Source: a virus (taxonomy: Duplodnaviria > Heunggongvirae > Uroviricota > Caudoviricetes). Taken from it: a stretch of DNA of 4,895 bases. Each line of letters starts with the position of its first letter. Position 1 is the stretch's first letter. The position numbers were made by a program, and so were the translations under genes. The stretch lies in the IMG/VR virus record IMGVR_UViG_2684622618_000028. One strand, written 5' to 3'. Below are positions 1,474 to 2,071 of this stretch, one piece after another. Below the pieces are notes generated by a model that was not told where the DNA came from, searched no databases, and was given only the letters and a program-made list of their open reading frames with translations.

Positions 1474-1554
1474 ATCTGTATGTTTTTTATATAGATTTAT
1501 TTTTTGCAGGGTTGTGTGGCTTGGGAGGTGATCGAGAGATCAGAATTGCGTTGT

Positions 1555-1944
1555 TTAGTGAGTTGCACCTATTAATTTTAAAATAAATACAATTGGTGTT
1601 TTTCGAGTTTTTCTTAACTCTTCATGCAGCTCCGTTCTCAGAATATATGATTTTTCGAGTTTGAAATTCTTGCGACCAGGCGTCTTATTGCCAGGCTCAG
1701 GAAGTGGAAGGCGTGTTTGAATGTCGAGTGGTGGACAGTCATAGAAGTAAATTCTATAAAGCTCAAGCGGTTCCCTACGTTCTTGTGATTGACGTTTTCC
1801 ATTAAGATGGGAAAGAACCATTGACCATATTACTTTCATTATGCATTGCGCAGTCAGTTCATGCTCGGCGAAGTGTTTACGATGCGTAGCATGAACACGC
1901 TGCATGAAAAAACCCGCATCAATTAAAATTGCTGCTTTCTTCAT
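1555..1944 (-). CDS. hypothetical protein (129 aa) in the rexA/rexB position of the immunity region; candidate exclusion/defence gene
   Basis: Uninterrupted 129-codon ORF co-oriented with and immediately downstream of cI (127-bp spacer), within an AT-rich ~450-bp segment with no similarity to the lambda rexAB sequence I recall. No family recognised by eye; only a weak GGGA-type RBS. Its last ~15 codons run into sequence homologous to the lambda OL-proximal non-coding region. Confidence 0.55.
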   Translation of the reverse strand: MKKAAILIDAGFFMQRVHATHRKHFAEHELTAQCIMKVIWSMVLSHLNGKRQSQERREPLELYRIYFYDCPPLDIQTRLPLPEPGNKTPGRKNFKLEKSYILRTELHEELRKTRKTPIVFILKLIGATH

Positions 1945-2071
1945 AAGAGTCCCAAAAAAATAGCCCAGAGCCGTTATGCAGATATTAACAATTGTCTGCG
2001 AACGGGGCTGGGCTTGGTTTAATTAATCTATGCCAAGTTGACTGTGCCGTCAACATAAAACTTACTTCCTA

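Follow-up and report, generated by a model that had tools for sequence, protein, structure and literature searches.

A truncated NYN-domain gene behind a conserved predicted leader RNA occupies the rexAB position of the defective Escherichia coli O157:H7 prophage Sp1

We report on a 4,895-nucleotide stretch of viral DNA (IMG/VR record IMGVR_UViG_2684622618_000028; the whole stretch is referred to as the window), and specifically on the segment downstream of its lambda-type cI repressor gene, where a short gene preceded by a predicted leader RNA stands in the place held by rexA and rexB in phage lambda. Chromosomes of E. coli O157:H7 match the window with 100% identity, and the window corresponds to the left-hand portion of a defective lambdoid prophage that is known as Sp1 in strain Sakai and as CP-933H in EDL933 and adjoins thrW, a tRNA-Thr(CGU) gene. 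Alignment with lambda (NC_001416) gave 92.2% identity over window positions 1123-1597 and 97.3% over 2065-4185. The non-lambda insert thus covers 467 bp (1598-2064) and stands in place of lambda 35772-37218, i.e., 1447 bp comprising rexB and rexA with their flanks. This part of lambda has no counterpart in the window, and the gene found there instead matches PHROG 5783 and the NYN family.

An earlier reading of the letters alone (the original prediction) had proposed that rexAB is replaced between recognisable lambda flanks, with OL3 on one side and cI on the other, and the lambda alignment bears this out. The proposed boundary at the cI stop codon is right in that the insert adjoins cI, while its exact position is 7 bp beyond the stop, where lambda homology restarts at 2065. 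The cassette had also been called AT-rich, which holds to a modest degree (39.6% GC in the segment compared to 45.6% in the whole window); its composition is about the same as that of lambda rexAB (40.9%). Moreover, the slot between cI and N is a documented mosaic hotspot with abortive-infection genes (PMC8585504), as had been assumed, and what stands behind this lambda-type cI varies between E. coli genomes: rexAB, a gene encoding a BstA C-terminal domain, a KilA-N gene or the NYN gene.

The open reading frame (ORF) downstream of cI, ECs_0273, is present with the position, strand and length originally given (Table 1). Its residues 1-116 are 100% identical to the prefix of a 285-aa 'NYN domain-containing protein' of phage ev099, which is encoded by an 858-bp gene between cI and N, while residues 117-129 diverge. 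The alignment with ev099 spans the entire 751-bp segment that was compared, to which 1328 bp correspond in ev099; the 576 bp that are missing comprise codons 117-285 with their stop codon and a further 66 bp in which the terminator of the gene lies. The suspicion that the ORF had been truncated at a recombination junction was therefore well founded, since the junction lies within it and its last 13 codons are read from lambda-homologous non-coding DNA. The ORF is well outside what chance would produce, its first 116 codons being identical to a family for which 7035 relatives were detected in the database.

Table 1. Features of the cI-downstream segment and its surroundings (window coordinates; the slash marks the point of junction)
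Feature	Position	Strand	Remarks
ORF ECs_0273	1555-1944	minus	129 aa
Coding remnant, codons 1-116 of the 285-aa NYN gene	1597-1944	minus	identical to ev099 YP_009909946.1
Read-through tail	1555-1596	minus	13 unrelated codons PIVFILKLIGATH and stop, in lambda-like non-coding DNA
Conserved leader RNA (predicted)	1953-2020	minus	ends 9 nt before ATG
Promoter-like element	2025-2053	minus	TTGACG-17-TAGATT; -10 ends 10 nt before P1
Perfect palindrome	2037-2054		GTTGAC-GGCACA-GTCAAC; overlaps -35 element
Deletion junction	1597-1598		576 bp of ev099 missing; IS629 here in other O157 genomes
IS-free junction (window, Sakai, EDL933)			AATTGG/TGTTTTT; 108 genomes
Forward IS629 junction			AATTGG[IS629]AGGCTGTTTTT; about 37-38 genomes
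Reverse IS629 junction			AATTGGTTA[IS629]TTATGGCTGTTTTT; 3-bp target duplication TTA; 71 genomes
Lambda-homologous non-coding DNA, OL3 to deletion junction	1474-1597		92.2% to lambda (1123-1597), 96.8% to ev099
cI repressor gene	2072-2785	minus	Peptidase_S24 and HTH_3 domains
OL3	1457-1473		TATCACCGCAGATGGTT
PL	1439-1411
PR	2833-2861

The 285-aa ev099 protein carries the Pfam NYN domain PF01936 at residues 158-205 (36.8 bits, cut-off 24.2), and its 7035 relatives are mostly 265-290 aa long. An AlphaFold2 (AF2) model of the full-length protein has a predicted local distance difference test (pLDDT) score of 86.7 and displays a PIN-like alpha/beta fold that can be superposed on solved NYN domains; a sequence search of the PDB with the family profile had given no match, and a fold search was needed. 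Six aspartates, D9, D69, D164, D170, D189 and D191, are invariant in an alignment of 42 sequences. Compared to known NYN domains (PF01936, LabA/DUF88-like; MARF1, PDB 5yaa, and Vibrio VPA0982, 2qip) the family protein is roughly twice as large as the minimal domain. It contains two large insertions, one at about residues 70-97 and one at about 120-160, and also has a basic tail and a P-x-WW motif that is conserved; the window ORF has the first 116 residues only. Literature searches combining NYN or DUF88 with prophage defence, RNA motifs or type III systems returned nothing relevant.

The invariant motifs VDIKLGMD and GDSDF fall in the deleted portion. Among the aspartates, D9 and D69 are kept whereas D164, D170, D189 and D191 are lost, and two central strands of the fold, as seen in the model of the parent, are retained. 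Searched by itself, the 129-aa ORF stays below the gathering threshold of PF01936, matches no Pfam family at E<=1, has no match in NCBIfam or PADLOC (including PADLOC-DB v2), and aligns with PHROG 5783, of unknown function, over positions 1-108 of 246 only. Homology search and structure prediction, both proposed at the outset, were informative for the parent, a NYN protein with a confident AF2 model. The ORF is almost certainly a truncated remnant of the NYN gene, and its product is very probably inactive as a nuclease because VDIKLGMD, GDSDF and most of the central sheet are gone. The protein that could not be assigned by eye is consequently no new family, merely 116 codons of a NYN gene followed by 13 junk codons, and the faint PIN/NYN resemblance that had been noticed was right: the full-length parent passes the Pfam NYN threshold. 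The suggestion of an exclusion or abortive-infection gene at this place does not apply to the protein as it stands: being truncated and having lost four of the six invariant aspartates, it is very unlikely to have such an activity.

The upstream part of the gene has fared differently. Read on the strand of the gene, the 127 nt between cI and the ORF contain a promoter-like element, a palindrome, a hairpin and a U-run. The predicted hairpin (2014-1962; 53 nt, dG -24.3 kcal/mol) consists of three stems, P1 (7 bp), P2 (5 bp) and P3 (5 bp), is capped by a 12-nt apical loop, CAAUUGUUAAUA, and is followed by an A and by U7 at 1960-1954, with the start codon 9 nt past the U-run. A stable stem with the end of P1 located 1 nt before U7 has the layout of an intrinsic terminator, and a simple terminator scanner missed it because the loop and the bulges exceed its limits. 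The leader is identical to that of ev099 and scores 74.7 bits (E 6e-15) with the covariance model described below. The palindrome overlapping the -35 element could be an operator or a divergent -35; similar palindromes are present at loci of Pantoea, Tatumella, Yersinia, Edwardsiella and P. syringae, though not in all relatives. These features suggest that the cassette quite likely has promoter and terminator functions of its own. In the window the promoter-like element and the leader are intact, whereas the nuclease is very probably dead. Simple co-transcription with cI, which had been expected from the position of the ORF, is neither needed nor suggested by the layout, in which a positionally conserved promoter-like element and a terminator-like leader lie between cI and the ATG; transcripts from PRM or PRE would meet the predicted terminator of the leader.

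The conservation of the leader was evaluated by covariation in 16 distinct leaders, using the three-stem structure taken from the window sequence. Paired cells amounted to 89.9% compared to 30-44% in slid controls, and 13 of the 17 pairs had changes on both sides. None of 500 shuffles reached the observed values, counts that are not to be read as probabilities because the sequences are related and the structure was drawn from one of them; the contrast with the slid controls is nonetheless clear, as is the count of pairs changed on both sides. In addition, the G-U pairs are compatible with the sense strand only, and RNAalifold independently gave the same stems. Applied to 631 kb on both strands, the covariance model yielded one match per gene copy (E 3e-17 to 2e-6), in every case directly upstream on the sense strand and also at loci that had not been used for model building; lambda gave no match. 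When IMG/VR was searched the other way around, with an RNA-first pattern, 64 contigs were recovered of which 56 were confirmed by the model, and a NYN homologue follows 6-21 nt downstream on the same strand in 55 of these 56. The sole exception (L159, 3559-3700) has a hairpin and a U-run followed by a tRNA gene.

The promoter-like element is conserved in position as well: in 19 of the 20 loci the distance from its -10 to P1 is 8-14 nt. Promoter scores of >=9/12 were obtained for 80% of the relatives compared to 3.6% of control windows, and the ATG lies 9-38 nt after the U-run across the family loci. The sequences of the apical and internal loops are conserved, with an apical loop consensus of about AAUNGUUAR. 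The leaders of more distant homologues are related to this one yet distinct and could be grouped as class B (Beta- and Gammaproteobacteria, Acidobacteria, Elusimicrobia) and class C (Bacteroidales); classes A, B and C all retain the U-run. In class B the outer stem, to which the pairing refers since the inner stem is variable in length and out of register in the MAFFT alignment, is 87% paired with five double-change pairs. Rfam 15 gave no match at E<=1 in the window and none at gathering score in 19 loci, while a search at E<=10 with three leader regions returned noise only, PADLOC does not contain the leader RNA either, and no description of it was found in the literature searched. Taken together, the leader RNA structure is in all likelihood real and specific to this gene family.

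An intact version of the cassette was found elsewhere, as had been proposed to look for: the identical 285-aa protein is encoded between cI and N in ev099, in 2B8, in the P22-like E212 and in many Stx2a-converting phages. Relatives occupy other moron slots as well as plasmids, always as a single gene. Specifically, homologues with 47-87% protein identity are preceded by the same arrangement in settings as different as a Pantoea island, Pseudomonas and Acinetobacter plasmids, a Pseudomonas syringae prophage (at its integrase end) and an Edwardsiella prophage, where the homologue fills the Q-holin slot on the strand opposite to its neighbours. Some of the relatives on prophages and plasmids adjoin toxin-antitoxin (TA) modules. 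We regard the segment in the window as what is left of a mobile cassette with a single gene, which some lambdoid phages carry in place of rexAB.

Several other occurrences deserve mention. The Proteus homologue (L017-L019, L039) has a fixed place in the chromosome, flanked by an ABC transporter operon on one side and glmS-glmU-atp on the other, and its leader is a variant with an 8-bp outer stem that is still detected by the covariance model. Almost all of the Rhodanobacteraceae species sampled (Rhodanobacter, Dyella and Frateuria; L042-L085) have a homologue. These homologues match residues 1-228 only, and their loci lack the U-run hairpin and show a different, G+C-rich one after a TAGAAT box; they may be a chromosomal, differently regulated branch. 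The Stx2a phage Stx2_EH0505 (L005) has two copies of the cassette, at 464-953 and 3491-4348, one of which is intact while the other is internally deleted, keeps its leader and adjoins an IS629-like element (96% identity). E. coli NRZ94505 (L006, 5067-5924) was considered as an independent disruption, given that RefSeq divides the gene into a 'NYN domain-containing protein' of 146 aa and a pseudogene labelled 'PIN domain-containing'; this was rejected since the DNA is identical to that of ev099 and encodes the intact 285 aa. The split is an annotation artefact, which we guess to have originated from the O157 fragment.

How might the intact module work? In ev099, 2B8, E212 and the Stx2a phages the predicted order is a sigma-70 promoter, the leader, a spacer with a ribosome-binding site, the gene for the 285-aa NYN nuclease and a terminator. 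Transcription would start a few nt before the three-stem hairpin with its U-run and, because the transcript would begin essentially at the hairpin, no competing anti-terminator fold is expected. The majority of transcripts would stop at the U-run to give an RNA of ~65 nt, and a minority would read through the leader and allow the RNase to be made. The conserved apical and internal loops might serve as a recognition site, most economically for the accompanying NYN protein, and the leader could then act either as an inhibitory RNA partner, in the manner of a type III antitoxin or of AbiF/RCd22, or as an autoregulatory target. The nuclease would remain silent until transcription or RNA stability is disturbed, e.g. 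upon phage infection or when the element is lost. In the window, the ~570-bp deletion has taken codons 117-285 and the terminator, leaving an ORF that now reads into 13 junk codons.

The AbiF/RCd22 prophage pair is a precedent for RNA control of this kind (PMC12373285). Type III TA systems (ToxIN, CptIN, TenpIN) and AbiF/RCd22 share with the cassette the order promoter, structured RNA, terminator and gene for an RNA-targeting protein (PMC12373285), and they too form a compact unit on phages and plasmids. The type III architecture, i.e., an RNA with a terminator directly upstream of the gene and co-transcribed with it, is what the sequence predicts here. In contrast to those systems, the protein has a NYN fold and is neither ToxN-like nor Abi_2, and the RNA lies outside Rfam. 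RexAB, BstA of Salmonella BTP1 and other occupants of the cI-N interval share the slot directly downstream of a lambda-type cI (PMC8585504). Compared to RexAB and BstA, the cassette has no relation in sequence or fold, consists of one gene and not two, and has its own predicted promoter and terminator-like leader instead of riding on the cI transcript.

By analogy with these systems the intact module may be an RNA-controlled toxic or defensive RNase, a suggestion that we regard as tentative. The wider proposal, that the NYN gene and its leader constitute a new and widespread type III-like family of RNA-controlled toxins or abortive-infection proteins with a single hairpin, and that the remnant in O157 Sp1 is an orphan RNA-antidote locus, is given a probability of roughly 0.28. 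Several observations weigh against it. Classical type III antitoxins are tandem repeats. No tandem repeats were found in window positions 1400-2150, the covariance model gives a single hairpin per gene copy, and in PADLOC-DB v2 the full-length protein obtained just weak local matches over the catalytic motif, to HEC-09 (E 2e-4) and NYN (E 1.4e-3). Together with the chromosomal relatives that are leader-less, this weakens a strict assignment to type III. Moreover, the fixed chromosomal site in Proteus fits a housekeeping-type role as well, and so does the lack of a U-run hairpin at the Rhodanobacteraceae copies, and supplements of an O157 study based on Hfq cross-linking and analysis of cDNA (Hfq-CRAC) list no small RNA at Sakai 301.82-301.89 kb. 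The promoter, start site, termination and read-through of the module are all predicted features, and toxicity of the NYN protein, its binding of the leader and the blocking of phages are putative.

The strongest competitor holds that the leader is a cis-acting attenuator or insulator that sets a low and fixed level of expression, and that the NYN protein is a non-toxic accessory RNase, acting for instance in RNA processing or regulation as other LabA-type proteins do. We consider this possible and about equally likely as the RNA-controlled toxin. A transcript that starts at the hairpin and has no alternative anti-terminator fold would suit an attenuator, as would near-universal homologues without the U-run hairpin in Rhodanobacteraceae, a Proteus copy that is chromosomally fixed beside glmS, and the lack of a real match in PADLOC. 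On the other hand, a plain terminator needs neither conserved loops nor a three-stem architecture kept across phyla, the gene and the RNA travel as a unit on prophages and plasmids beside TA modules, and the gene occupies the slot of RexAB and BstA; these points speak against such an attenuator.

The deletion itself has left a trace of how the gene was lost. Three junction states occur among O157 genomes, one IS-free and two with IS629 in opposite orientations (Table 1), and the intact gene is kept in none of them. Bases of the original flank that remain in the IS-bearing states (AGGC, TTATGGC) are gone from the window; the window junction is therefore the most reduced form, both IS-bearing states keeping flank bases that it lacks. 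Excision of IS629 in O157 that depends on the IS-excision enhancer (IEE) is reported to produce adjacent deletions joined at microhomology (PMC9943667). The situation described for IS629/IS1203 and IEE is similar to that at Sp1, where other O157 genomes have IS629, in one orientation or the other, at precisely this junction and the IS-free junction of the window looks alike, with 1-2 bp of microhomology and few flanking bases lost; the difference is that here the order of states follows from sequence logic alone. We consider it likely that the window junction is the scar of an imprecise IS629 excision. A derivation solely from the forward-IS state was entertained and then widened once the reverse-IS state with its target duplication appeared. 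The remnant ORF of the reverse-IS629 state (L171 and L172, 2881-3264) ends in ...RKTAIMNRPGNPGD and encodes 127 aa (WP_000708831.1), to which RefSeq gives the name 'PIN domain-containing protein' or, in a different genome, 'hypothetical protein'.

Other observations bear on the order of events. The clean target duplication of the reverse-IS state implies a precursor that was already deleted and IS-free, AATTGGTTATGGCTGTTTTT, one base (A) that is retained in the forward-IS state is missing from this precursor, and a chimeric junction query found no genome (0) with IS629 within an otherwise intact NYN gene. Alternatively, the initial ~570-bp deletion may have arisen independently of IS629, through slippage or recombination involving the two imperfect direct repeats that flank it, TTATG--TGTTTTT and TTAAGGCTGTTTTT, and IS629 would have come later. 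Insertion into the deleted precursor would explain the clean TTA duplication, the endpoints do lie in similar short sequences, and no intact copy with IS629 was found. Yet the forward-IS state with AGGC retains an original A that is missing in the precursor and cannot descend from it, and the window junction is 7 bp shorter than the precursor, as imprecise IS excision yields. An IS629-independent origin thus appears rather unlikely, and we favour IS629 excision as the source of the window junction.

The remainder of the prophage in the window is decayed. Lambda N is broken off after ~22 codons and fused to an integrase remnant on the thrW side (1070-1200, junction near 1123); the apparent start of the 'integrase' ORF (205-1179) comes from an out-of-frame reading of N, and RefSeq flags the Sp1 integrase as lacking its N-terminus. 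A duplicated ori iteron of 23 bp (ATCCCTCAAATTGGGGGATTGCT, two copies, about 3930-3975) shifts the reading frame of O, which RefSeq labels as a frameshifted replication protein. A run of 50 N at 4186-4235 takes the place of 266 bp that complete O157 genomes have at the 3' end of O (L004, 11500-11765). Lambda P keeps ~20 codons and is then joined to genes for a tail fibre and tail-fibre assembly (4236-4297 onward), so that the prophage has lost most of its DNA between P and the tail fibres. A 47-bp stretch from the 3' end of thrW (145-191) recurs ~12 kb downstream (L004, 18045-18091) and is presumably the att core bounding the Sp1 (plus Sp2) prophage region.

Could the 129-aa protein nevertheless be functional, as an RNA-binding or dominant-negative fragment or as an exclusion factor? 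The ORF is open, its promoter, leader and start codon are intact, it is 100% conserved in 108 genomes, and RefSeq sometimes annotates the protein. Set against this, the protein keeps only two central strands and two of the six invariant aspartates, and its tail varies with the junction state (PIVFILKLIGATH in the window, AIMNRPGNPGD in the reverse-IS state) and is thus incidental. The identity among genomes reflects the clonal origin of O157 and not selection, and the surrounding prophage has decayed with N, O and P all broken. A function of the fragment itself is accordingly highly improbable. Least probable of all, to the point of being negligible, is that the hairpin and U-run are a mere terminator of the cI transcript in this phage group and have nothing to do with the downstream gene: the element does lie 58 nt past the cI stop and would halt PRM and PRE transcripts, but we rejected this since the structure precedes NYN homologues in unrelated contexts without cI or a co-directional upstream gene (Edwardsiella, and Pseudomonas and Acinetobacter plasmids), is followed by the NYN gene in all but one of the contigs confirmed in the RNA-first search, and is absent from lambda.

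What the window holds is a pseudogene derived from a NYN-domain gene that is annotated but uncharacterised, within a prophage already known to be defective. The new lead is the conserved and covarying terminator-type leader that precedes single-gene NYN nucleases on phages, plasmids and islands. Should this RNA control or neutralise the nuclease, the few RNA-antitoxin and abortive-infection systems would gain both a new RNA and a new fold, and such control would explain why the NYN gene is found in the RexAB slot of lambda. The proposed family would then span the RexAB/BstA slot and other moron slots, plasmids, genomic islands and several bacterial phyla. On this proposal, finally, the Sp1 remnant of E. 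coli O157:H7 could still make the RNA and might thereby dampen a copy of the same system that enters with a superinfecting phage, certain Stx2a phages being an example.

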